Of a stretch of DNA of 64,000 nt, positions 3,301-55,290 are shown in pieces (within the stretch, counting starts at the first letter, position 1; every line of letters begins with the position of its first letter). The DNA is from Squalus acanthias (lineage: Eukaryota): the NCBI GenBank assembly GCA_030390025.1, contig CM059431.1:105650001-105714000 (forward strand), given 5' to 3'. A program made the position numbers and the translations under genes. The notes beneath the pieces are model-generated. The model made no database searches, was not told the origin of the DNA, and worked only from the letters and a program-made list of their open reading frames with translations.

Positions 3301-4369
3301 TTCCTGCATTTTTGATTCTTTTCCCCCCAACATTTACTTGTAAGCACTCTCCCTTAGAGTTCTTTAGTATTACTGTACCCATTAACAATATTAAAAAAAC
3401 TGGACAGGTAATTTTCTATCTTGGTACCTAATCTACCTGCTGCTGTCTGTAAAAAAAAAAAAGAAATACAGTCTTTCACTGCTGTACCACTCTGCTTTGT
3501 CCCAAAACAGTCCCGCATCTCTTCTGAATACCTGCAACTATTAGCCTCTTTACATAAAACAAAAAAGGTAAAAGACATGAGAGAATAAAAGGAAACAATT
3601 TCTTTTTTAACCTCTGCTAGTTTTGTTTTAATCTTGAAATGTTTCTTCGTGACGGATTTTCTACAGCAAAAGATGAAAAACAACCTCATGCATTTTAGGA
3701 TCTGTACATAACAAGCAGCCTCATTTTCAATACAATGTCACTTTAGGACAAACTGCACAAAAAATTCTATTTCTGCATCTTAACAACCACTTTTTTTTGA
3801 AAGTCAGGCACAATATTAAAAGTAATTCTAAGAATCATTTGGCACAGAGACTGCCGTACTGCATCTATGCAGCCAAAAGGAACAAAGAGATATTCTGCAA
3901 GATTAGTATTACAAAAACAACCACCATTTGCATTTATATAGCACCTTTAACCTAGTAAAACATCCCACAGTGCTTAACAGGAGGGTTATCAAACAAAATT
4001 TGACACAGAGCCACATCAGGAAAAACTAGGACAGTTGACCAAAAGGTTGGTCAAAGAAGTTTTAAGGAGCGATTTAAAGGAGCAGAGGGAGGCAGCGAGA
4101 GGTAGGCCACGATTTTGCTGGCAGTGGCAGGTCCCAACCCCACTGCTGTCTCTATCCCAGCCTCTGAGATGAATTTCCTTAAATTGGGCTTGTTAAGCCC
4201 GCCCAGCACGTTTGTCGGCCAATTAGAGGAAGCGGCTCTGGTGATGTCATTTGATGATGCATCATCAGCCGGTATCCTTAAAGGGACCATGGCCAACTTT
4301 AATTTGACAGTTGTGCTGTCAGTGTTCCACAGCATTGAGGTGCTGCAAACACTGACAAGCACTGCACAG

Positions 4370-4585
4370 ATGTGCAGGGCTGCACCAAGGCTCTCCCATG
4401 ACTCCCTCCATATGTTTATGGAGGGAGTCATAGCATGCAGGGAGGTCCTCTTCCCTTCCCATGGGCAGAAGAGACCTCCCCAGGAGATCAACGCAGCCTG
4501 GTTGTACATTGCCGAGGAGGGCACAAGCAGGGATGTGGGCAGCAGAACCTGGGTGCAGTGGCACAAACATTTCAATGATCTCAGT
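4370..4585 (+). pseudogene. Harbinger Myb/SANT-like DNA-binding protein remnant
   Basis: Within ORF 4115..4822; W..VA..RT..QxxKxFNDL pattern; homologous to 60933..61167. Confidence 0.7.
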
Positions 4586-5795
4586 AGATCACAAAACATT
4601 AGTACAAAGCCACACTCAACCTCATCCTGCTGTGCCTCTCATCACATCCCCATCACTCTGCTTTCCCAACCCTACTCCTGCACATCCTTACTCACACCAA
4701 CTTACCTTGCACCTCTACCCATCCCTCTCTATCTACATTATCACTTCCCCATCTCACTAGCCACCCCTCACACTCACCCTCATCCTCGTGCAATCATACC
4801 AACTAACAACATACAAGGGTAGGCACTTGGGTGTTTTATGTAATGTTCATGTAAAGTTTCTGGTTATTGTGATGTCAAAGATTGAAACCTTTATTTTCAA
4901 CACTTTGCATTCTTGGACAGTTTTGTGTGCACCTTTGGAAGTGGCTTAGTGAGTTGCAGTGAATGTTGAGACATAACAGTACCTACCGCAATGGTGATGA
5001 GTGTGAAAGGCTTGGGCATTGTAGGGATGCTTTATTGTGTTGGTGTGGGGTGGTGCCAACCTGGCACATCATGTGGCAGCCAGGGTGTTCAGTGTCAAGT
5101 GAAGTAAATCTGGCCATGCTGAAACCACCCCTAGTCTCCCGGGCAGCAATGTGGTCGGGTGCTGATGCCCTCTGTCTTGTGCAGCATCAGGTGATTGCGG
5201 AGAAGGGTGGTGTTGTTGTTGGTGCTGCTGGTGTTGGGGCTGATCGTGGTGGGATTCTGAGGACCAAGGTGAGAGAGTATAAAGGGCACCCATGCTGATG
5301 GAATAGATGGCAGGTGAAGTAGAGTTGACAGAAGTGATCTGAGGCTTCTGTAAAGACTTGCAGCATGGTGAATCTGTTGTGGAAATGCAGTGAGGAAGAG
5401 TTTGTGGCTGAGGGAAGACATCTCTGTAAGGTGGGAGCTTTTACTTTACATTCGAAGCTGTCAACTCAGCAGCTGATTCAATGGCCACTGAACTCCCGCC
5501 TCAGCTTGACAGACGTGGTCCACGACCAGCGAGGACCCTGTGGACGAGCTGTCAAATGCAGCAGGTAAGCTGAAAATCATTCTCAAGTGGCTCTAAACAA
5601 GCCATTAATTACCTGAATTGGGTCCCCCACCGCTGTGAGTCGGGTCTACTCAGTGCTGACAGACCCGACATCGGGAAAGGCGCAAGGCAGCGGGTTCACA
5701 GCGGGGTCCTGACCCGCTGGGAGGAAAAAAACACGTTTCCACCTGACCAGCCACCGATCGCGCCCGCTGACCCGCCCCCCCCTGCCCCCAAAATC

Positions 5796-6263
5796 ATAGA
5801 AACATAGAAGATAGGAGCAGGAGTAGGCCATTCGGCCCCTCGAGCCTGCTCCGCCATTCAATGAGATCATGGCTGATCATTCAAATTCAGTACCCTGTAC
5901 CTGCTTTCTCCCCATATCCCTTGATCCCTTTAGCCTTAAGAAATATATCTAACTCCTTCTTGAATATATTTAATGAATTGGCCTCAACTGCCTTCTGTGG
6001 TAGAGAATTCCACAGGTTCACCACTCTCTGGGTGAAGAAATTCTTCCTCATTTCTGTCCTAAATGGATTACCCCTTATCCTTAGATTATGACCTCTGGTT
6101 CTGGACTCTCCGACCATTGGGAACATTCTTCCTGCATCTAGTTTGTCCAGACCTGTCAGAACGTTATATGTTTCGATGAGATCCCCTCTCATTCTTCTAT
6201 ACTCCACTGAGTATAAGCCCAATCGACCCAATCTCTCCTCATATGTCATTCCTGCCATCCCAG
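5796..6263 (-). mobile_element. 5'-truncated CR1 inserted in the right TIR of the Harbinger element
   Basis: ORF 5887..6258 is nearly identical to the C-terminus encoded at 1340..1645 and 28482..29477. Confidence 0.95.
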
Positions 6264-6483
6264 CCCATGGAGAGGTTTAGGCAGGGAATTCCAGAGCTTA
6301 GGGCTTAGACAGCTGAAGGCACGGCCACCAATGGTGGAGCAAGAAAAATCGGGGATGCGCAAGGGGTCAGAGGTAAGCATTCAGAAATAAATGTTGGGCC
6401 ATGCCCCCACAAACAAAACAAACCAGGAGCACAAAAATCAGTCCACTGGGTGAAAGTCAATTCTTATTTCATTTTTATAGGGA

Positions 6484-6918
6484 ACGGTAGCCTAGATATC
6501 ATCTTAATAAGAACATAAGAAATAGGAGCAGGAATAGGCCACTTGGCCCCTCGAGCCTGCTCTTCCATTCAATAAGATCATGGCTGATCTTGGGCTCAAA
6601 GCCACTTCCCTGCCCACTCCCCATAATCCTTCACTCCCTTCATTTGCAAAAATCTGTCTATTAATGGACTACCAATCCCCAAGCTCATGAGTTCAAATCC
6701 CAAACGTGGGAATTTGCAAAACTGAGTTCAATAAAACTGAGGGCTGGCACCAGAAAAAAAAAGATGAAAAACCCAACGAGTTGATTAATGTGCCACCCCT
6801 ACCCAATCTGGCCTGCACATGTCTCCAGTCCCACAATCAATGGTTGACTTAGGGCAGCTAGGGATGGGCAATAAATGCAGCGTTCTCCGTGTCGCACACA
6901 TCCCACAAAGAAATAAAA
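6484..6918 (+). mobile_element. tRNA-headed SINE related to the 13732..21381 LINE, interrupted by a CR1 3' tail (about 6509..6660, minus)
   Basis: B box GAGTTCAAATCC; core TCTGGCCTGCACATGTCTCCAG..TGGTTGACT; tail TAGGGATGGGCAATAAATGC..CACATCCC. Confidence 0.75.
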
Positions 6919-7117
6919 ATCTAATAACAATCATTTATCTTTTTGTAATGTATACAGACTCTTACTTCACTGTAACCAACTGGTGATGATAATTCGAGAA
7001 GCTGAGTGATTGGACTTGAAGGGGGTGGTGGTTTGTGTCAGCTTTACCTCTGACTTCTGAGCGGTTCAAATCGCTCCCACTCCCTTGGTTCTAGATTTTG
7101 GACTTATTTGGGGGTTG

Positions 7118-8712
7118 TGATACAAAAGGTGCAACAGACAACTGAGTTTGATGAAAGAACTTCAATCTTTATTAAAAGGTAAGACAAATAATAACACTCT
7201 TATCACTCTAAAGGTGGGGGAACACTTCGGTACAAGCGAGGGAAATGACAGTAGAACAATACTTCACCCCTCCCAACGAAACTTTACTAGCTAAGTTAGG
7301 TTTTGAAGGACCAGGGAGAATGCTCACCAATTCTTTGACAGTTGGGCTAAATCGCGGTTTTGGGGTTCGCTGTTTATGGCGGTTAGTGTCTGCCGTACCC
7401 CGTACGCGGTAGAGGACTTCACCTGGGTCTCCGGTCAGTCTTCGCGAGTCCGCTGATGCGGTAGGATGTCGTTATGGATTTATCTGGTGAGTACCCAATT
7501 TCTTTAGTTGAGCAGTAGGTTTTAGAGTCTTTGGGGAAAATCTTACCCAGGGGTAAGTCAGGAGTAGTTCGTAGTGTGGAAACTTTGCGATTCTTCGGGT
7601 TTTCTTCCCTGGAGTTGGTCTTTGTTGGTCACGGTGGCCTGCTATTACCTGGTCAGTTGGGGGTAATGCGCGGTTGTTGGTTTCGTGAGGCCTTTGGTTT
7701 CCGCGATGGCTTTAGGCCTTGTTTTGTGTGTCGGTCGACCTCATGGAGCCGTCGGTGACTTGTTGCTGCTTGTTGCTCCGGGTGACTGTGTTAGGACCGT
7801 TGTTGGAGGTCCGTCGAGGTGGTATCTTCACGAGCTGGACTCAGGTGTGTCTGAGTGGTGAGCGATGCCGACTCGCTTCCAGCTCAGGCCTTCTTCTTCT
7901 TGGTCTCTTCTCCTTCTGATGACCACCGGTTGCGACTGACTGCTCAACCCAACAACCTTGAACTGTGGTGTCTCTCTCTTGTGTGCTTGGTGGGCCTTCA
8001 ATTATACAGAATTGAAGTGGCCTTATCTTCCCGCCAAATCTACTCAGTTCATTGTCTAGTTTTGGCGGGCTCGTAAATCGGTAACGACTTACTAGCACGT
8101 TAACTGGGATTTTAACAGGCCTTCAATCTCACCCATTGAACATGGCCTTATCTACCCGCCAAATTTGCTCAGTTCATTGTCTGAATTTGGCGGGCCTGTT
8201 ACCAGTAACTGCTCTGTAAGTGTCAAATGGGTTTTGGGATGGTTTGCATCCTGTCGATCTCCTTGGCTGATTGCTGGTGATTGGTTTCGTGTTTTGGGTT
8301 TCTAGGCTGGACTCAGTCTTTTCTATAGCCTAGTCCTGGGTGCTCTGTATTATGCATGTTTCCTGATGGGCGCTGTAATCGGTTTGATGGGACCTGTTGT
8401 TTTGGGTGGGACTGTCTTCTCCTAGGGTCTATTGTCAAAATGTTGATGCTTGCTGGGGCTTTGAGTGAGGTCATCCCGGCTCCCCAGACATTGCAATTAA
8501 CTGCAATACCCAAAACTGCTTTTACAGATGTTTATCCCACCTCTTGTTCCTTTATAGGCCCAGACATAGTTTTAAAATGCCAAAACTTGGTTTTTGGTCT
8601 TACAGTCCCTTAGGTTAGGCTCAAATACTATATTATCACTCTGAGGTAGTTCCAAAGTCCTTTTTCCTTAGGTTTTGGGGATCTGTAAATTTTGGAAACC
8701 TTACAAACTACA
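7118..8712 (-). mobile_element. Solo LTR (1595 bp)
   Basis: TG...CA ends, exact 4-bp TSD GTTG (7114..7117 and 8713..8716); minus-strand TATAAA near 8551 and AATAAA near 7168. Confidence 0.85.
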
Positions 8713-8837
8713 GTTGCTAATACCTCAAAGTGAAAATGGTGCATCAGCTACATCATGCACACTGGTCATTAAGAATGACTTCCACCACAAGTAAATGAAC
8801 CACCCCACACAAATCCAACAGTATATCATAATTGTGG

Positions 8838-9405
8838 GTACTGGAGTACTGTGTACAATTTTGGTCTCCTTACCTAAGGAAGGATATACTTGCCATAGTG
8901 GGAGTGCAACGAAGGTTCACGAGATTGATTCCTGGAATGGCGGGACTGTCGTATGAGAAGAGATTGAGTAAACTAGGCCTGTATTCTCTTGAATTCAGAA
9001 GAATGAGAGGGGATCTCATTGAAGCATACAAAATTATTACAGGGCTTGATAGGGTGGATGCTGGGCAATGTTTCCCCTTGGCTGGGGAGTCTAGAACCAG
9101 GGGCCACAGCCTCAGGATAAAGGGTAGGCCATTTAGGACTGAGATGAGAAGAAATTTCTTCACACAGAGGGTGGTGAATCTGTGGAATTCTCTACCCCAG
9201 AGGGCTGTGGAGGCTCACTCATTGTGTATATTCAAATTAAGTCGATAGATTTCTGACTAGTAAGGGCATCAAGGGACATGGCGATAGAGCCGGTGAATGG
9301 AGTTGAGGCAGAAGATCAGCCATGATCTCATTGAATGGCGGAGCAGGCTCAAAGGGCCGAATGGCCTACTCCTGCTCCTATTTCTTATGTTCCTATGTTC
9401 TTATG
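8838..9405 (+). mobile_element. 5'-truncated CR1
   Basis: ORF 8832..9248 LEYCVQFWSPYLRKD..RTRGH; CR1 3' UTR hairpin and TATGTTC tail. Confidence 0.95.
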
Positions 9406-22350: not shown

Positions 22351-22500
22351 TAATAAAAACAGAAAATGCTGGAAATACGCAGCAGGTCAGGCAGCATCTG
22401 TGGAGAGAGAAACAGAGTTAACGTTTCAGGTCGATGACCCTTCGTCAGAACTGGAAAAAGTTGGAGATGGAACAGGTTTTTAAGCAAGTGTAGGGGCAGG
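22351..22500 (-). mobile_element. Penelope-type terminal repeat fragment with hammerhead motif
   Basis: Same repeat as at 27275, 28100, 33340 and 47650; contains CTGACGA..GAAA on the minus strand. Confidence 0.75.
22416..22452 (-). ncRNA. Minimal type I hammerhead ribozyme motif
   Basis: AGTT-CTGACGA-A-GGGTC-ATC-GACCT-GAAA-CGT-T-AACT: stem I 4 bp, stem II 5 bp, intact core. Confidence 0.75.
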
Positions 22501-26670: not shown

Positions 26671-27274
26671 AATAATTCCCTCTGGGTTTCTTAAGCTAGG
26701 CCAAATATTTCAAATTCAAAAAGCGATTCTGTTGGCTACTTTCTATGGACTCCCATCGTCTTTGTGCGGAAAGCCAAATAGAGAAATCACTGTCTGAAGA
26801 CATTACTCGTTCCCAGCTGTGAAACTTCAAATACATTCTAGCTGGCAAATATTTTTTTTTTTTTGCTATTTCGAGCGGCCAAATCATCAAAAAACATGCT
26901 TTGTTCCACAAAATAAGGCGAGCAGCCCCTTGAGGCTTCCTGGGTAACAGAGAGGACGGAAGTCAGTGCTCAATGACAAGGATTGCGAGCATCTCCCAGC
27001 ACGGAGTCTTTGATCTGATTCAGTTTGACAGTTTTCTATCCAAATGTCTGGGAATGATGGAACATGGCAAGTGATTCCACGGTCCTGGATCACTGGCAAC
27101 AGGACCACTCCTCCTTCCATGCAGCATAAGCCAATCAGGACCGCACCAATGATTTAAAAGACCTTGGCTTCACAAATATTAAAATGATCTACTTGCGTAA
27201 ATTGGCCCAGATGCAGGGAGTACACTGCAGGGGGGGGCTGGACAACTGCTGCCCCAGCAACCCTTAGGGGAATA

Positions 27275-27412
27275 CAATAGCAAAATCCTGCGGATGCTGG
27301 AAATCCGAAATAACAACAGAAAACGCTGGAAAAACTCAGCAGGCCAGGCAGCATCCGTGGAGAGAGAAACAGAGTTAACGTTTCAGGTCGAAGACCTTTC
27401 GTCAGAACTCTT
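27275..27412 (-). mobile_element. Penelope-type terminal repeat fragment with hammerhead motif
   Basis: Collinear with 22351..22500. Confidence 0.75.
27371..27411 (-). ncRNA. Minimal type I hammerhead ribozyme motif (best-paired copy)
   Basis: AGAGTT-CTGACGA-A-AGGTC-TTC-GACCT-GAAA-CGT-T-AACTCT: stem I 6 bp, stem II 5 Watson-Crick bp. Confidence 0.8.
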
Positions 27413-27446: not shown

Positions 27447-27653
27447 ATGATGCGGAGATGCCGGTGTTGGACTGGGGTGGACAAAAGTGAGAAGTCGCAC
27501 AACACCAGGTTATAGTCCAACAGTTTTATTTGAAATCACAAGCATTCGGAGCTGCTGCCCCTTCACCTGACGAAGGGGCAGCAGCTCCGAAAGCTTGTGA
27601 TTTCAAATAAAACTGTTGGACTATAACCTGGTGTTGTGCGACTTCTCACTTTT
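27447..27653. mobile_element. Second Penelope-type family: short insertion forming an 82-bp inverted repeat
   Basis: Arms 27483..27564 / 27572..27653 (81/82), 7-nt spacer; flanking duplication AAAGAATGATGGCC / AAAAAATGATGGCC. Confidence 0.8.
27563..27600 (+). ncRNA. Minimal type I hammerhead ribozyme motif (second family)
   Basis: TCAC-CTGACGA-A-GGGGC-AGCA-GCTCC-GAAA-GCT-T-GTGA. Confidence 0.75.
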
Positions 27654-28099
27654 AAAAAATGATGGCCCACAGACAAGACAAGGAGCAAAAAAAATTCCAA
27701 CCATTACAAAAAGGTTGAAAATAGTTTTTAAATATTTGTCAGACTTTCCAAAAGCCCGCATGGAGGACAGGAAGTGGTAGCGAGAGAAGAAAAAACCACT
27801 ATCAATGGCATAAAGCACAGCCATGCAGCCCCAGTTATAGGCCTGGCAAATTAGATGTGCTGCTTGCCTCGATTCACAATTCAAGACACCTCCCCTCGAG
27901 ATGACAATGTGTCATGCCTTGTAGGAGGTAATGAGAAGGCTCAATCAACAATGTGCAGACCCAAATGCAGAAGAAGATAGCATACTTTAAGGAAAGCAAG
28001 ACTATCCACGTATGAGGCAAATGGGCCCAAGACTGCACACCACAACATTTTTGCTCGTCAAACTGTTCTACATTTACTGTGCCAAGCCTTCAAACAACC

Positions 28100-28195
28100 T
28101 TACCGTTCTGACAAAAGGTCATCGACCTGAAACGTTAACTCTGTTTCTCTCTCCACAGATGCTGCCTGACCAGTTTCCAGCATTTTCGGTTTTCT
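28100..28195 (+). mobile_element. Penelope-type fragment with mutated hammerhead core (CTGACAA)
   Basis: GTT-CTGACAA-A-AGGTC-ATC-GACCT-GAAACGTTAACT at 28105..28140. Confidence 0.7.
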
Positions 28196-32399: not shown

Positions 32400-33388
32400 G
32401 ACTTACCCTTTAATTAATTAATTAATTAATTAAAATTAAATGGATCCCACCAATTACACTGGAATTAAGTGATATACTCAAGGGCCCCTGCTTAACAGTA
32501 GTCCCCGCTACACAAAGAGACCGTAGAAACCACTAAATTTAAGTTTAGAAAAATTGAGAAAGAAAACACTCACCAACCAATCACTTACCTGCTTTTTGGT
32601 GACGTTACACTATGAATACTTTTTGCTTCCCTCTCCCAGAACCTGGATTTCTGAGCTGCCTCGGGGCTCACCTTAAGTACCGCCGCTCGCCGCCTCTGTT
32701 CCCTCGCAGGTCCGCCGCCTCTGCCGCCTCGCCGCTCTAGCTCTTTGCCAGATAGGTGTACTGAGGGCAGCAAATATGGCAGAGCGCGTGCTAATCTCTC
32801 TGGAATTCCTCCTCTCATCTTGCACCCGCTAATATCAAGAAGCACTGGAGGGGTTTTGTGTCATTTTAAAAAGCAAACTTACCGTAAAGGAGCAAAAAAA
32901 AAAGGCATCCAAACAGCCTCACAAAGAAAATTAATTGAAAAAGATGGAAAAAAGTCCCTCATTAAAACAGAGTTCTAAAAAGCCACAACACATCAAGGTT
33001 CCCGTCCTTCCATTTTAATGGGCACCGAAGGATAAGAAGAAAAAACCTGGAGAAAATCTTGCAGAATTGGGACTAGCTGTTCAATTAAATATTTTTGCAT
33101 CAAATCTGAGTCTATGAACGAGGCTAAGGCGCAAAATAACAAGCAGCATTCTAACACACAAAATGAACCAGGCTTCAGAATTACAGCCCATTGGAAAATT
33201 AGCAGAGCCTTCTCCTGCCCCCACCCCCACCCCCACCCCGCCCCCCTGCCCCAGCCCCACTGTCCCCAATCGTTTTAATCCCTCGGTGCCTGTAACAGTG
33301 CAGCTCAGCATCCTAGAATCAGCTCTGTACTCTGCAGACTGTTGGTCATTTCTTCGGTTCCGATCAAAGATCATCGACCTGAAACAAT

Positions 33389-35007
33389 GGGCCGGATTTT
33401 GCGACCACCCCCCCCCGCCACCCCACACGGGTGCGTACGAGGTGAGCACGCGCCCTTAAGGGCCGCGCAAGTTCCGGGTTTAGGCAGGCGAAGCGCATGC
33501 GCTGAAACCCGGCACTTGCGATCTGCCAAGAATTGTCTTGACAGATCCTCCGCATGCCCGGGAGACGGGCCTCTGCGGGTGGAGATTTGCGCTATTTGCT
33601 CAACTTCCGCCGGCTGAATACCTGTCAAATTCTTACGCCTGGTAAAAGCAGGCATAAGAGTTTTTTAAAAATAGAAAAATAAAATTTTATCACTCATTTA
33701 TAAATTAAAAATACTCTTCAAAAAGGTAAGTTTATTTTTAGCCCCATAAAAACATTTAATTATTTTTTCAAAATATTAAGGGGGAGAAATTCGGTATGCC
33801 CCGTTTGGGGCGCAATTATTGGCCGGGCGCAAAGTTTAGCGCCTGCCGCTAATTATCGCCTCCGACTACAAACTTGGCTTCTATCGCCCCTGGAGGTGAT
33901 TGGAGCGCTAAATCTGGCGCTACACACCTCTCTTAAGGCACTAACGCCGAGGAGCGAGGCGCTACCTCATATGATGTCAGTCAGCAATGGAACACAGACA
34001 CACTGGCACCGGCCAGTTCTTAAAGGGGAGGGTCGATCTTGCTCTCCATCCACACCCTGCTCATTGCAGCCTTGAATCTCAGCCTAGAGAGACCTGTACA
34101 TCAAATCTGCTGCAAAGAACAATGGAGAGGGCCAGGGAAAGAGCTCAGAGTGCAGCGCCCATAGTCACTTCTCAATCGATGCAAGGAAGGTCAAATCAAA
34201 ATGAACCTGCAAAGTGCTGCTCAGTAGTCAAAACTCCTTCACACAGCGTTGAATCTCTCCAGAAGTCTCTCTCTCTCAGAATGGGTGGTGCAAAAGTGTC
34301 GCCGACAAAAAAGGCAGTAAGCGGCCGCCTTTAAATAGTGCTCTCCCAGTCCCTTCCCAACTGCAAAACGCTCTCCTCAACCTGTCGTTGCTAGCAGCAG
34401 GCAGTAAGGCAGGGGGCGCCACTCAATATCCGCTCCGGGGCGTTGCACACTCGACTGACGTCACGATCTGCAGGCGTAGGAGATCGTGGCGGTAGTGTTT
34501 AGCGCCGCCGCAAAATGTCTGGTCAATTTCGCGAGCGGCGCAAACATCGCCGCGCCCGGGTGCTAGTTACTTTGCGCACCATTAGCGCCCTCTTAGGGTG
34601 CTAACGGGAGGTGCAAAGCAACCGAATTTTTCCCCCTAAATTTTTGTTTAAAATATTTAATTAAATGGCATTTTAATTAATTTTAAATATGTAATTAAAA
34701 AATGTTTTTATTTCATCGGTTTTTTAAGTGATTCCCATTCATACTTATGACAGTTCCGTATATACAGAACTGTCAAATGTATGAATGGGGATTCCTTCTT
34801 TTATTGGTTGGGCCGACCTACGTGAGCCCAGGAGCGCCTACGAACCGCAGTTGCCCCGGGGGATACGTGGGGCTCTGCCCGCGCAGACCCGGAGAGGACC
34901 AGGATCGCCAGCCTCTGTACCTCCCGGGCCACCAGGTACTTCCGTAGATATTTTTGCAGGCCGGAGGCGTCCGCCTGCGGGAAGGCTCCGATCGCAAGTG
35001 TTGGCCC
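33389..35007. mobile_element. MITE with GC-rich arms and AT-rich centre, hosting a nested Harbinger element
   Basis: TIRs GGGCCGGATTTTGCGA / TCGCAAGTGTTGGCCC (11/16); homologous to 38868..39563. Confidence 0.72.
33780..34636. mobile_element. Non-autonomous PIF/Harbinger element (857 bp)
   Basis: TIRs GGGGGAGAAATTCGGT / ACCGAATTTTTCCCCC (15/16), TSD TAA/TAA; shares GCGTTGCACACTC..TGAYGTCACGATCT with 60620..62233. Confidence 0.88.
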
Positions 35008-35801
35008 GTTAACTCCGTCTTCTCTCTCACCACAGATGCTGCTGAGCGCTTCCAGCATTTTTCTGCTTTTATTTCAGATTTCCAGCACCCGCAGTGTTTT
35101 GCTTTTGAATTTTGTCAGTTCTCTTGTTTTAACCACAGTTTCACATCACAGTGGTGAAATGAAACACTGCAGCCGAGGCGTGATCAATGTAACGAATCAT
35201 GAAAAGACTCTGTTTCAAAGGACGCCAGAATGGGCAAGAAAAATGTAAACTATTTGCTGTTTTAGTTTCAAAAACAGTTTGAAGTATCAATGCAAGTTAA
35301 GTACTGTATAGCTGTTTATCTACAAATGAATGATGTGTGTTTTATTCATGTGGAAATTTATTTCTGGCAATAAAACTAATTTGTAATTTAGCCTGAATTC
35401 TATGGTCTGACAGTGTGGTGCTTTTTTACCTAACAAAGAGAGCAGGAGTCTATACTAAACATGAATACAACTTAGCAAGAATAGTCCAGCAGTGCCAGGG
35501 TATAGTGCTGTCAGCCATGGCTCAGTTGGTAGCACTCTTGCCTCTGAGTCAAGAAGGTTGTGGGTTCAAGTCCCACTCTAGGGACTTGAGCACAAAAATC
35601 TAGGCTGTCACTCCCAGTGCAGTATTGAAGGAGCGCTGCACTGTCGGAGGTGCCGTCTTTCGGATGAGACGTTAAACCGAGGCCCCGTCTGCTCTCTCAG
35701 GTGGATGTAAAAGATCCTGTGGCACTATATCAAAGAAGAGCAGGGGATGTTCTCTCCGGTGTCCTGGCCAATATTTATCCCTCAATCAACATCACTAAAA
35801 C

Positions 35802-46265: not shown

Positions 46266-47115
46266 GGGCTGGATTTTACCAGCCCTGAGGAGGTGGGTTT
46301 GGAGGCGGGACTGCTGGGAAAGTCGAAAAGAATGGGAGCAGGTCTCGAACCCGCTCCCCACCCACCTCCAACCAATCTTCCCGAGAGTCGGGTCCCCGAT
46401 TCCTAGCGGCAGGAAGAGGATTATAGCCACTTAACTGCTAGTTAACAGGTAGATAACAAACAGTTAAGAGGCTTTATCCAATTTTTAGACTTCATTTGCG
46501 GGCTTCCTGATGTTGGGGAACCCCGCCAGGGTAAGTGAGGCGTGCTGTGGGTCTGTTGTACTGTTGGTGTACAGATGACAGCTGCAGAAGTGGTGTGAAG
46601 GATGCAATGGGACACTGGTAAGTATCAGAGGTAAGGAAATGTTAGGAAAATCATTTTTAATGTGTTTAGATTTTTCTTTATGTGACAAGCTTTGAAGTGT
46701 TTGTGTGGCCTCAGCTCAATGGGAGAAGTGACAGATCGCTTCTGTACCCTCACTTGCAGCTGCCATCTGTTTCATCCTAAGGAGAGAGTCATTGGAGAGC
46801 CTCGGTGCAAGGGCTCACCTTTGTACAGTGATTGTCAGTGTTTGACAGCACCTCAATGCTGTCAAACACTGTCAAATCATCTGTCAAAAATTTATGGTTC
46901 ATGTGCCTTTAAGAAAACTGGCAGACGAAGCGTCATCAACTGACATCATCTGACACCGGCTTTCCCTTAATTGGCCGGCAAGCCCGCAGGGCGGGCTTAA
47001 CAAGGCCAATCAGGGGAAAATAGCGTCTGTGCGTCAGACGTTGATGGGGGCGGGACTAGAACCCGGAAGGCAGCAGTCCCGCCCCCAACTTGTCTCGGTG
47101 AGTAAAATCCAGCCC
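46266..47115. mobile_element. Harbinger-derived MITE (850 bp)
   Basis: Perfect 14-bp TIR GGGCTGGATTTTAC; about 46920..47020 is a reverse-complement homolog of about 4172..4268; 3-bp flanks do not match. Confidence 0.82.
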
Positions 47116-47649
47116 TAGGACACTATTATTAGCACAGTTGTACCAGTGGATAATGAACAGAAAAGTATTGGATGAGATCAGGCCTACAAGTGTTGATACA
47201 GATAACCTCTAAGTAATATGCAGAGCAATCTCAGCTTGTAAATGAATAATGCCATTCAGCACATAAAACTGCTTTGTATAGGCATTTTACATTAAACAAT
47301 TTTTCACATTATTGGTTTAGGGTTCAATTATTGTCTTCAAGTAGACATAGTGCAAGTATAAATAGCTACCCACACAATCAATAAATTGTTTTTCAGATTC
47401 ATTTATAAGCCAGAACATGATAAATTGCCCCTAATTCAAAATTAACATGTTAATGCAATTTTACTGCAAAGCAACATGCTCACGTCTTTGTACTTCCAGG
47501 TTTGAGTTTCAGTAAAGCCAGTTCAATCTGCCTGCCACGTAAAGGATGAGTGAGTACTGACAAGCGTTGCTCTCCAAGTCAAAAGTAGGAAAACTCTTAA
47601 GAGTCAGGGGCTGGCAAAGGTTCTGCTATAACCACATACACCTTCCCTG

Positions 47650-48742
47650 GACCCAACTTTTGTTTCTCTACTTGTCCTGTTAGCACCTCCATTTGCCTTG
47701 CACCATCATCCCTTTTGTCATTTAATCACTCCTGCCCTCCACCCTATCACAGACCTTCCCTTTTGTTCTTTCCTCCCCTCTCCCACTCCCTCCATTTTCC
47801 CTGGCACTGTACTTGCTTAAAACTGTTAAATCTCTAACTTCTTCCAGTCCTGATGAAAGATCATCGACCTGAAATGTTGGGGGCGATTTTGCCAGCCCTG
47901 GGGAGGTGGGTTTGGAGGCAGGAATGCCGGGAAAATGGCATCCCGCCCCCAACCCGCCTCCGTGCCATCTTCCCAGGAGGCGGGTTGCCGACCTGCGCTG
48001 GGCCCCGTCTCCTGGAGGCGGCAAGGGGATTACAGCAACTGAACTGCCTGTTAACTGGTAGTTAACAGGCAGTTAAGAGGATTATCCCCATTTTTCCACC
48101 AGAGGTGCGGGCTTCCCGACGTCGGGAAACCCTGCCAGGGTCACCAAAGCGAGCAGTGGGTCTGTGGGTGTTGGAGGGGTGCAAAAGTGCACTTTGGAGG
48201 TAAGTGTTGGGTGCAAGTGTGGAGAGGTAAGTATGTGAGGTGAGTGTAAAGTGTTAGAAATTGTTTACTTACCTTTGTTTCTTCCTGCAGGCCTCAACAG
48301 TTGGGGAACCGGAGACTCCTCATCTCACCGGCGGAGATGACAGATGGCTGCTGCATTCTCCGATGCAACAACCATCTAATTTCTGCTCAGCAGATAGGTT
48401 TGATGAGTCTTGAATACAAGGACTCATTAAACAACAGAGAATGTCAGTGTTTGACAGCTTCACAGAGCTGTCAAACGATGACAATTCATCTGTCAAAATT
48501 TTTTGACAGATGAAACATCATACGCTGACGTTCTCTGTAATCGGCTTCCGCTGGGCGGTCTTAACAAGGTCAATCAAGGGAAAATATCGTGGGTTGGCCA
48601 CAAGTCAATGGAGGTGGGACTAAAACCCGACAAGCAGCAGTCCCACCTCCAACACGCCCCCATTGGCAAAATCACCCCCGTTAACTCTGTTTCTCTCTCC
48701 ACAGATGCTGCCTGACCTGCTGAGTATTTCCAACATTTTAAG
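47650..48742 (+). mobile_element. Penelope-type fragment split at its hammerhead by a MITE (47650..47878 and 48680..48742)
   Basis: CTGATGAAAGATCATCGACCTGAAATGTT | GTTAACTCTGTTTCTCTCTCCACAGATGCTGCC. Confidence 0.8.
47879..48679. mobile_element. Harbinger-derived MITE (801 bp)
   Basis: TIRs GGGGGCGATTTTGCCA / TGGCAAAATCACCCCC (15/16), TSD GTT/GTT; collinear with 46266..47115. Confidence 0.87.
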
Positions 48743-53256: not shown

Positions 53257-53312
53257 TCATCTGGTTGGGTCTTGTGAGATAAAGGAGACGGTGTTAGCAG
53301 TGCGAACATAAG

Positions 53313-53715
53313 GGGCTGGATTTTCTCAGCCCCGAGGAGGCGGGTATGGAGGCGGGACTGCCGGGAAAGTTACAGAATTTGGCGGCGGGTGGCAAACCCA
53401 CCCCCCAACCCGCCCTCCGTGTCCTGAACACAAGGACTCATTAAACTACACAGAATGTCAGTGTTTGACAGCTTCACAGAGCTGTCAAACGCTGACATTT
53501 CTTCTTTCAAAAATTCTTGACAGATGACACGTCATACGTTGACGTTCTCGGTCACTGACTTCCCCCTAATTGGCCTGCTGAGCCCGCCGGGCGGGCTGAA
53601 CAAGGTCAATCAGGGGAAGATCCCGCTGGTTGGCCAGAGGCTGATGGAGGCGGGACTGAAACCCGGCAATCAGCAGTCCCGCCTCCAACACATCTCCATT
53701 CATAAAATCCAGCCC
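53313..53715. mobile_element. Harbinger-derived MITE (403 bp, internally deleted)
   Basis: Perfect 12-bp TIR GGGCTGGATTTT, TSD AAG/AAG; same family as 46266 and 47879. Confidence 0.87.
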
Positions 53716-54894
53716 AAGGAGTCAGCACAAGAGTACCTGTTCCACAATTTGAGTGAGAGAAGTGTTGAATATGAAAGTACTTTACTTGTCCAAGGGACCG
53801 GATTCACACCGTTAGGTACACCTATGGACTGCTTCAACAAGTCATTACATGCATTGTTTCTGCCGTGTTGCGTTAGACCCAGCTAGTTCACTCGACTTGA
53901 CAAGATCAAATCACCAACGTTACATAGAATTACATCAACTGGGATAGTGCTCAGTGGAAGCTGGACAACTGGAGTGCAGTGAGATTTGGCAGTTTCACAC
54001 TTCGATGTTCCGAGTGCACCTGTGCTCCTACATGTGTAAATTTGGCAGGAAAGTGCCACAATATAGCAGAGGTGTCAATAGCACAATGGGAAATTTTCCC
54101 TCCCTTAAATGTGTGGTAATTTTACGTGCAAGATACTCAAATTATCTACGTTCACTTAATATGGCATTATTAAGGAAAGCTGATTTTCTAATTAACTCTG
54201 TTCTAATGCCGAAGTTAAACAGCTTGTATTATGTTTCACATAATTAACTGTAACAGTATTATAGGAAACATCAATTTAAAATTCTTGAAATGGGACTAAT
54301 ATTTTTAAATATAAAAGTTATTTTCTAACGGAAAATGTTTTGCTTCAGAATCAAAGGTAATTAGCATAACTAATTGAGAAATTATCTCTAATAGGATAAT
54401 AATTATATTCCTCATGTTCAAATAGATAGGACTCGCAATTTTTTGAGTTCTGGAAAATCTCTTCTGACTAATCTAATTTACACATCAAGCCTAATTGGTA
54501 GTTAATATTATCCCTAATTATAAAATGTTTAGATTCCTCACATTTCCTAGAGATAAGATTTGCTTTTTTTTGATTTTTAGAGGATTTATTAAATACAGGA
54601 AACTTTCGTTTATCCGGCACCCAAATAACCGGAATTCTCGCTTAACCGGCAAAAATCATCCTCCGAAAACTCCTCTCAAATAACCGGCAATGTTGCCGAG
54701 TCGCAGTCGAGTCTCCGCGAACGCCGAGTGCTCCGAAAACTCCTCTCAAATAACCGGCAATGTTGCCGATCCCGAGTCCGAGTCCGAGTCCGCGAACGCC
54801 GATTTAGTCAGTAGGGGTACTTTTCAAAAGTGCCACTACTCGGCCTCCTGGCGCTGTCGCAAGTCCGAAACATTGCAGTAGCATGAGTAGATTC

Positions 54895-55250
54895 TCCCGC
54901 GCTGCCTGGAGTCTCTTCGGATCGGCCATTTTGCTGGGTGTCTCCCACGATGCTGGTAGTCTCTTCTGATCCACCATTTTGCTGGGTGTCTCCCACGCTG
55001 CTGGTACTGTAGTCTCTTCTGATCCACCATTTTACTGTGTGTCTGCCACGCTGCTGGTACTGTAGTCTCTTCTGATCCACCATTTTGCTGTGTGTCTCCC
55101 ACGCTGCTGGTACTGTAGTCTCTTCTGATACACCATTTTACTGTGTGTCTGCCACGCTGCTGGTACTGTAGTCTCTTCTGATCCACCATTTTGCTGTGTG
55201 TCTGCCACGCTGCTGGTAGTCTCTTCCTAGCCACCATTGTTCTGTGTGTC
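54895..55250. repeat. Minisatellite inside the Tigger 5' region (47/53-bp units, about 7 copies)
   Basis: CCACGCTGCTGGTACTGTAGTCTCTTCTGATCCACCATTTT(A/G)CTGTGTGTCT(G/C). Confidence 0.92.
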
Positions 55251-55290
55251 TTTCCATCTTCATCGGCAATTATCTCCTCCATCTTGCATT

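Follow-up and report, generated by a model that had tools for sequence, protein, structure and literature searches.

Recurrent Harbinger insertion at the predicted cleavage triplet of a Penelope-like hammerhead motif in Squalus acanthias, and its relation to a loose palindromic target

Introduction

Why should two different transposons lie at exactly the same position of two separate copies of a ribozyme motif? The question is raised by a 64,000-nucleotide stretch of the 3.71-Gb genome of Squalus acanthias (contig CM059431.1, positions 105650001-105714000), referred to here as the window, where both inserts resemble Tourist-like MITEs, i.e., short non-coding elements mobilised by PIF/Harbinger transposases, and both interrupt the hammerhead at the end of a Penelope repeat. 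A first-pass annotation had proposed that the ribozyme sequence is a preferred Harbinger target and that insertion destroys the ribozyme. We use the window together with genome-wide counts to ask how strong the hot spot is, what the inserts are, and whether the ribozyme or merely its DNA sequence accounts for the position.

Results

Two composites in the window

The first composite begins with the 5'-truncated 3' end of a Penelope-like element (47602..47878, + strand), which runs from the untranslated tail into the hammerhead and, across 244-277 bp, shows 78-84% identity to the corresponding part of other copies; those copies connect to an open reading frame with reverse transcriptase (RT) and GIY-YIG. 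From sequence and family pattern, the 5' part of a minimal type I hammerhead motif is recognised at 47846..47878 (+ strand): the 5' strand of helix I at 47846-47849, CTGATGA at 47850-47856 followed by a bulged A, helix II at 47858-47870, and GAAA at 47871-47874 followed by T, where most copies have C. Substitutions at 47849 and 47860 each break one pair, leaving helix I with 3/4 and helix II with 4/5 positions paired. After the left target-site duplication (TSD) GTT at 47876-47878 comes element 1, a non-autonomous Harbinger of 801 bp (47879..48679) with 16-bp imperfect terminal inverted repeats (TIRs), GGGGGCGATTTTGCCA and TGGCAAAATCACCCCC. GTT flanks it on both sides, and the right copy (48680-48682) leads into the helix I 3' strand AACT and a short Penelope tail (48680..48739, + strand). 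The insertion is thus as the first-pass annotation had it, an 801-bp MITE with TSD GTT breaking a hammerhead motif.

In the second composite, a decayed hammerhead copy with the core CCGATCA (5' part, 33350..33388, + strand) ends in the left TSD copy AAT at 33386-33388 and is followed by element 2, an older non-autonomous Harbinger (33389..35007) of 1,619 bp in total, or approximately 759 bp without a nested element. Its TIRs are GGGCCGGATTTTGCGA and TCGCAAGTGTTGGCCC, its flanks are AAT on the left and GTT on the right, and the right GTT (35008-35010) opens the Penelope tail of this second copy (35008..35117, + strand). The insertion point is the same repeat position as for element 1. At another locus (L292) a member of the element 2 family, 79% identical over 752 bp, occupies the same site in the opposite orientation with a clean GTT/GTT duplication, so the flawed left duplication of element 2 casts no doubt on the position. 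The earlier description, of a second and different MITE at the equivalent position of another copy, was accurate, except that it missed a GGG-ended MITE nested within element 2 (element 3, 33780..34636, 857 bp, TSD TAA), which has further copies at L274, L277 and L293.

The only stretch shared by the interiors of elements 1 and 2 is a 14-bp chance match, and 12 of 16 bases agree between their left TIRs when the sequences are read side by side. Like termini with unlike interiors argue that the two elements belong to different families of one superfamily. Within 6 kb, the window has two further relatives of element 1, more diverged in sequence, at 46272-47089 (65% identity) and 53312-53709 (78%), neither of them in a hammerhead copy.

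The remaining copies of the host repeat in the window are empty. Two have an intact hammerhead core (22352..22500 and 27271..27409, both on the - strand) and the third has the mutated core CTGACAA (28099..28186, + strand), which bears out the earlier count of two filled copies out of five. Given genome-wide fill rates of 1.7-6.7%, depending on the variant, at least 2/5 filled copies are expected with a probability of 0.003-0.04, so that the window is unusually rich in them. In RNA from related organisms (reads of two runs and contigs of two others), the unique flanks of the locus are present. Next to the empty copy at 27271-27409, the window also holds a near-perfect 63-base hairpin (27538-27600), which has a weak Rfam match to mir-2208 below threshold (E 0.15) and is probably the end of a further repeat. 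A tandem array at 54858-55251 has a unit of 48-53 bp in approximately seven copies.

The hot spot is genome-wide

The pattern CTGAAAYGTTGGG occurs 1,325 times in the genome, against 61 occurrences of a reversed-pattern control, and 28 of 30 loci read consist of the repeat followed by a GGG-ended element (two chance matches, L003 and L024, were left out). TIR starts within 0-30 bases of a hammerhead core number 848, compared with 0 for the control. Among the first 100 of these 848, listed and scored by eye, 93 are at GTT, four at +6, one at +8 and two elsewhere. Counted with exact 16-base anchors, 1,297 hammerhead sites of three variants together are filled and 76,946 are empty. Since the TIR pattern starts at 154,622 places in the genome (14,057 for the control), the intact hammerhead site is enriched approximately 515-fold over the genome average, and the three variants jointly receive, as a lower bound from exact anchors, approximately 1.5% of all insertions. 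The strong enrichment at the hammerhead GTT that the first-pass annotation predicted is therefore found.

The host is a Penelope-like element with a terminal hammerhead

Filled loci with long upstream sequence extend into a coding region, and a genome search with that coding frame gave 82,499 candidates. In a 672-aa frame at L131 we find RVT_1 (E 2e-4) and GIY-YIG (E 1e-3), both under the Pfam curated cut-offs; RVT_1 appears additionally at L132 and L134, and GIY-YIG at L097. A Pfam scan of the frame at L016 gave no match, and the domains came from longer copies. In 9 of 13 loci examined the hammerhead motif lies 3' of the coding match. This layout, RT and GIY-YIG followed by a hammerhead, fits an endonuclease-bearing Penelope-like element and supports the earlier assignment of the motif to the Penelope type. 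Many empty hammerhead copies on contig C1 form opposite-strand pairs 30-800 bases apart, which is the inverted-end pattern of Penelope insertions.

The motif itself was examined in 31 empty copies, collected with at most one mismatch per core box. CUGANGA is exact in 20 of them and GAAACGUU in 17; helix I positions are paired in 25-30 copies and helix II positions in 25-31. One helix pair alternates between A-U and G-U, and two-sided compensatory change was seen in none of the 31. All have a bulged A after CUGANGA, and GAAAC joins GUU directly, the loop being absent. At 10.1-11.1, 16 of the 31 have an A-U pair and 14 a G-U pair, not G-C, so that the motif here is a variant, and the Rfam hammerhead models gave no family in a scan of the window at E up to 1. 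From the known geometry, cleavage is predicted after GUU, in agreement with the first-pass reading of GTT as the predicted cleavage triplet.

The inserts are Harbingers that arrived independently

Three long inserts at the hammerhead site, at L265, L276 and L278, contain transposase remnants that exceed the Pfam cut-off for DDE_Tnp_4 (E 1e-17, 1e-15 and 2e-22, respectively), and they share the same kind of TIR and an exact TSD. Most resolved loci have matching TSD triplets. These features uphold the earlier identification of the inserts as Harbingers. The window MITEs encode no DDE_Tnp_4, and their link to Harbingers is through TIRs and short subterminal matches: the end type of element 1 clusters with the transposase-bearing L265 and L276, and element 2 resembles, over short subterminal stretches (69-80%), the DNA next to intact DDE_Tnp_4 transposases. 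A candidate frame for a Myb/SANT-like protein on the opposite strand of L265, the single frame scanned, had no Pfam match. Genome-wide, a first look gave 63,885 DDE_Tnp_4 candidates, among them many intact transposase frames. Two apparently intact Harbingers of 2.9 kb (L289:3312-6215 and L291:3272-6216) carry a 390-aa transposase frame, TIRs starting with GGGCCARAAATTG and the TSD AAT or ATT. Harbingers at the hammerhead site are often broken by LINE fragments or further Harbingers (L265, L267, L269, L274), and such stacked insertions can be used to order insertion waves.

A hot spot of this kind could also arise if the composites had spread as units, retrotransposition or segmental duplication having multiplied one original insertion, or a few. 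Two observations favour this: L018 and L019 are segmental duplicates, 98.8% identical over the flank, and in 11 pairs the heads of the inserts are at least 93% alike. However, 60 inserts fall into 19 end types, range from 0.2 to 5.9 kb and are found in both orientations, also within the element 1 family, whose members elsewhere enter the same site both ways round. Only L018/L019 among the 60 share a flank, no other pair having a long common sequence past the Penelope end. The TSD, moreover, tracks the local variant of the site (GTT or ATT), and elements 1 and 2 of the window have no common interior, so the two composites do not descend from one ancestral insertion. Insert diversity rules out a single ancestral insertion as the general cause, and spreading of composites as units is hardly credible as the source of the hot spot. 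The 19 end types, the two orientations and the clean TSD at L292 instead mean that the insertions are independent Harbinger events.

A loose palindromic target predicts the insertion point

A target read off the hammerhead site alone was replaced by a logo from unconditioned flanks. The logo comprises 203 ends in 174 clusters, all within the initial 85 Mb of contig C1, taken from the first 30 loci of two TIR-pattern listings plus 20 and 56 of their respective other 70 (the hammerhead end in the second listing being L016). Its consensus is the palindrome GASWC-WWW-GWSTC, with weaker outer positions, and it is loose, at approximately 6 bits. GTT is a disfavoured TSD, seen in 1 of 174 half-sites, and in the element 2 family the TSD is ATT/AAT in 16/28.

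We then scored the hammerhead with a matrix trained on 171 or 173 non-hammerhead half-sites. By its score, the intact site ranks among the best 0.03% of positions in the window, and the matrix predicts that this site is used 361-380 times more than background (bootstrap 5-95%: 135-924), compared with the approximately 515-fold observed. It also captures where in the motif the elements land: the predicted shares are 90% at GTT, 6.5% at +6 and 2.4% at +8, against 93, 4 and 1 among the 100 insertions listed, with +6 and +8 ranked second and third as observed. The fit is poorer elsewhere. For a site in a LINE, described below, the matrix gives 316-749-fold against approximately 12,000-fold seen, about 15- to 40-fold too low, and for the TGTT variant 124-fold against approximately 1,350-fold, about 10-fold too low. 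Likely causes of the shortfall are copy age, post-insertion decay and position dependence, and because the matrix omits all three, the agreement at the intact site could be partly luck. It should also be noted that a fill rate mixes preference with time, since young Penelope copies dilute it; if many Penelope copies postdate the Harbinger bursts, the per-site preference is greater than the fill rate suggests.

The decay of the CpG in the motif perturbs the target by single bases. The intact CGTT is filled in 693 and empty in 65,272 copies (693/65,965, 1.05%), TGTT in 154 and 5,444 (154/5,598, 2.75%), and CATT in 450 and 6,230 (450/6,680, 6.7%). CATT and TGTT arise by decay of the same CpG on its two strands and are therefore age-matched, and CATT is nevertheless filled more often, with an odds ratio of 2.55 (p 2e-25). 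From the weakness of GTT as a core, the matrix predicts a gain from CG-to-CA, which gives ATT, and none from CG-to-TG. The TSDs further indicate that the mutation mostly preceded the insertion: the right TSD is ATT in 18 of the 27 resolved loci with ATT on the left (30 read), but in only 2 of the 21 resolved loci with GTT on the left (28 read; p 8e-5). The family with TIRs matching the intact 2.9-kb elements accounts for 7/30 of the ATT-left loci and 0/28 of the GTT-left loci. As ATT breaks the 15.2-16.2 pair of the ribozyme, the copies that suit the transposon better are those with lower predicted ribozyme activity.

The hammerhead is one target among many

How special is the hammerhead among all Harbinger targets? 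For three TIR patterns, the listed element ends have hammerhead flanks in 0/100, 1/100 and 1/100 cases. In a LINE, whose frame matches RVT_1 and which we take to be CR1-type, a site in the reverse-transcriptase region is followed by a GGG end in 1,639 of 7,092 exact copies (23%), whereas the intact hammerhead counted for this comparison is filled in 693 of 72,700 (0.95%), approximately 24 times less often. The LINE site is the strongest hot spot measured here (L281-L285 are empty examples; L039, L041, L048, L052 and L062 are filled). At least eight more recurrent landing sites lie in other repeats, L046, L050, L058, L063, L136 and L208 among them, each with varied inserts; that other repeats have hot spots of their own with varied inserts also counts for sequence preference. 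Early in contig C1, the same 20-base flank accompanies a TIR start many times (L031-L035, L044, L045, L053, L054), making up 17 of 100 ends listed when counted by eye, one of them with a last-base change; some copies are spaced at 4.2 kb, which suggests a composite that was amplified as a whole.

These counts bear on whether Harbingers evolved to target the Penelope hammerhead, either to gain a safe haven or to put a rival element out of action. Evolved targeting would account for the approximately 500-fold enrichment per site, for the 93 of 100 listed insertions at a single position and for the use of the site by many families. Set against this, the hammerhead takes only approximately 1.5% of insertions and 2 of the 300 ends listed, 99% of intact sites are empty, the intact site is the least filled of the variants, and the LINE site is filled far more often. 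We therefore consider evolved targeting highly improbable, and the variant and LINE counts reject direction by the ribozyme as the main cause. For the same reason the proposal that the hammerhead is a preferred Harbinger target does not hold.

A more likely explanation for the repeated entry of Harbinger families into the hammerhead GTT is that GAAAC-GTT-AACTC resembles the loose target GASWC-WWW-GWSTC and that the motif occurs over 75,000 times in the genome; judged from sequence comparison, this is very probably the main reason. The left half-site would be supplied by the conserved hammerhead word GAAAC and the right half-site by the helix I strand of this family, with the symmetry axis of the target falling on the middle T of GTT, unlike the axis of the ribozyme palindrome AACGTT. 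CpG decay from CG to CA would then convert the poor GTT core to ATT, a better target. We infer that the pattern results from recognition of DNA sequence by a transposase, the overlap with the ribozyme being coincidental.

Effect of insertion on the ribozyme

Destruction of the ribozyme by insertion is unproven. The two filled copies in the window bear damaging substitutions in any case, in one case the broken pairs of helices I and II and in the other the core CCGATCA. The opposite outcome, in which insertion completes the ribozyme, can be modelled: the TSD repeats GUU, so that a second GUU-AACU follows the insert, and paired TIRs would supply a helix III made up of two pairs, then a 3-nt bulge, then the TIR stem, turning the minimal motif into a monomeric hammerhead. 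We folded 13 composites, five of which have an intact core and intact helices I and II. In these five the TIR stem forms with a probability of 0.86-1.0, and the three-helix fold lies 4.8-6.7 kcal/mol above the minimum, compared with 7.4-21.4 for shuffled inserts. With the core held unpaired the cost is 6.9-7.9 kcal/mol, similar to the 6.7-9.3 per core of a tandem dimer (4 loci). The predicted probability of helix III is nevertheless at most 0.07 in all 13 composites, the window copy, with its broken pairs, costs 13.0 kcal/mol, and ATT-type composites lack the 15.2-16.2 pair. A bulge two pairs from the core and a GUU triplet, both present here, are in general unfavourable for a hammerhead. Experimentally, addition of a helix III to a single minimal motif did give cleavage, although the activity was low and mostly at non-physiological Mg2+ (PMC4209133, accessible part).

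Completion of the ribozyme by insertion is thus unlikely on the folding models, and it is similarly doubtful that some hundreds of composites self-cleave as monomers just after the MITE in read-through transcripts. In the RNA data from related organisms, no pile-up of ends was listed at 47878 or 48682; the reads come from many copies, and ordinary RNA-seq is ill-suited to detecting cleavage, so that this result weighs neither for nor against it.

Discussion

The closest precedent for the hot spot is Harbinger3_DR, a zebrafish PIF/Harbinger with the long palindromic target AAACACCWGGTCTTT (PMC3016246, accessible part). As there, the 3-bp TSD is central in a palindromic target, the transposase is of the DDE_Tnp_4 type, and the half-site ACAC/GAC beside the TSD resembles GASWC. 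The system here differs in its A/T-rich core, WWW instead of CWG, and its looseness (approximately 6 bits), in TIRs that begin with GGG, and in a target common to many families.

Like Tourist-like MITEs as a class, the elements here are short and non-coding, with TIRs in common with autonomous Harbingers and A/T-rich 3-bp TSDs, but they are larger, at 650-900 bp, and use a wide range of TSD triplets, not mainly TAA/TTA. The TIR and TSD features of the PIF/Harbinger superfamily are treated in PMC9179366, which, in the part accessible, reports Harbingers as undetected in elephant shark and urges checks in other cartilaginous fish; the present genome, in contrast, has many intact transposase frames.

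Metazoan Penelope-like elements are known to carry minimal hammerheads in their terminal repeats (Cervera and De la Pena, 2014, PMC4209133; see also PMC6155905). In common with those, the motif here is a type I hammerhead without helix III, with a palindromic 15.2-16.2 region, a short helix I and a bulged base before helix II; it is terminal to an element with RT and GIY-YIG, and occurs mostly in dispersed truncated copies. The window family fits the dimer-dependent class, save that the 10.1-11.1 pair is A-U or G-U (30/31) instead of the usual G-C. Helix II, unlike in PMC4209133, has five pairs, and the copy number greatly exceeds the 4,000-9,000 of coelacanth and Xenopus. The accessible part of that paper does not mention insertion of a transposon into the motif, and a search of titles and abstract openings, a weak one covering few subscription journals, found no report of Harbinger insertion into Penelope hammerheads.

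If composite RNA does cleave as a monomer, a DNA transposon would make active ribozymes by position alone. The hot spot is real and exists across the genome, and a sequence preference meeting a repeat of very high copy number explains it well; it does not show that a transposon has been directed at a ribozyme. The rule at work is a known one, namely that abundant repeats become hot spots for any DNA transposon whose long palindromic target they spell, and the case yields a target consensus for the Harbingers of this genome. The tens of thousands of near-identical sites amount to a natural experiment, in which the hit rate rises with one CpG decay but not with another. Finally, elements nested at fixed positions can order the bursts of Penelope, LINE and Harbinger elements in time.
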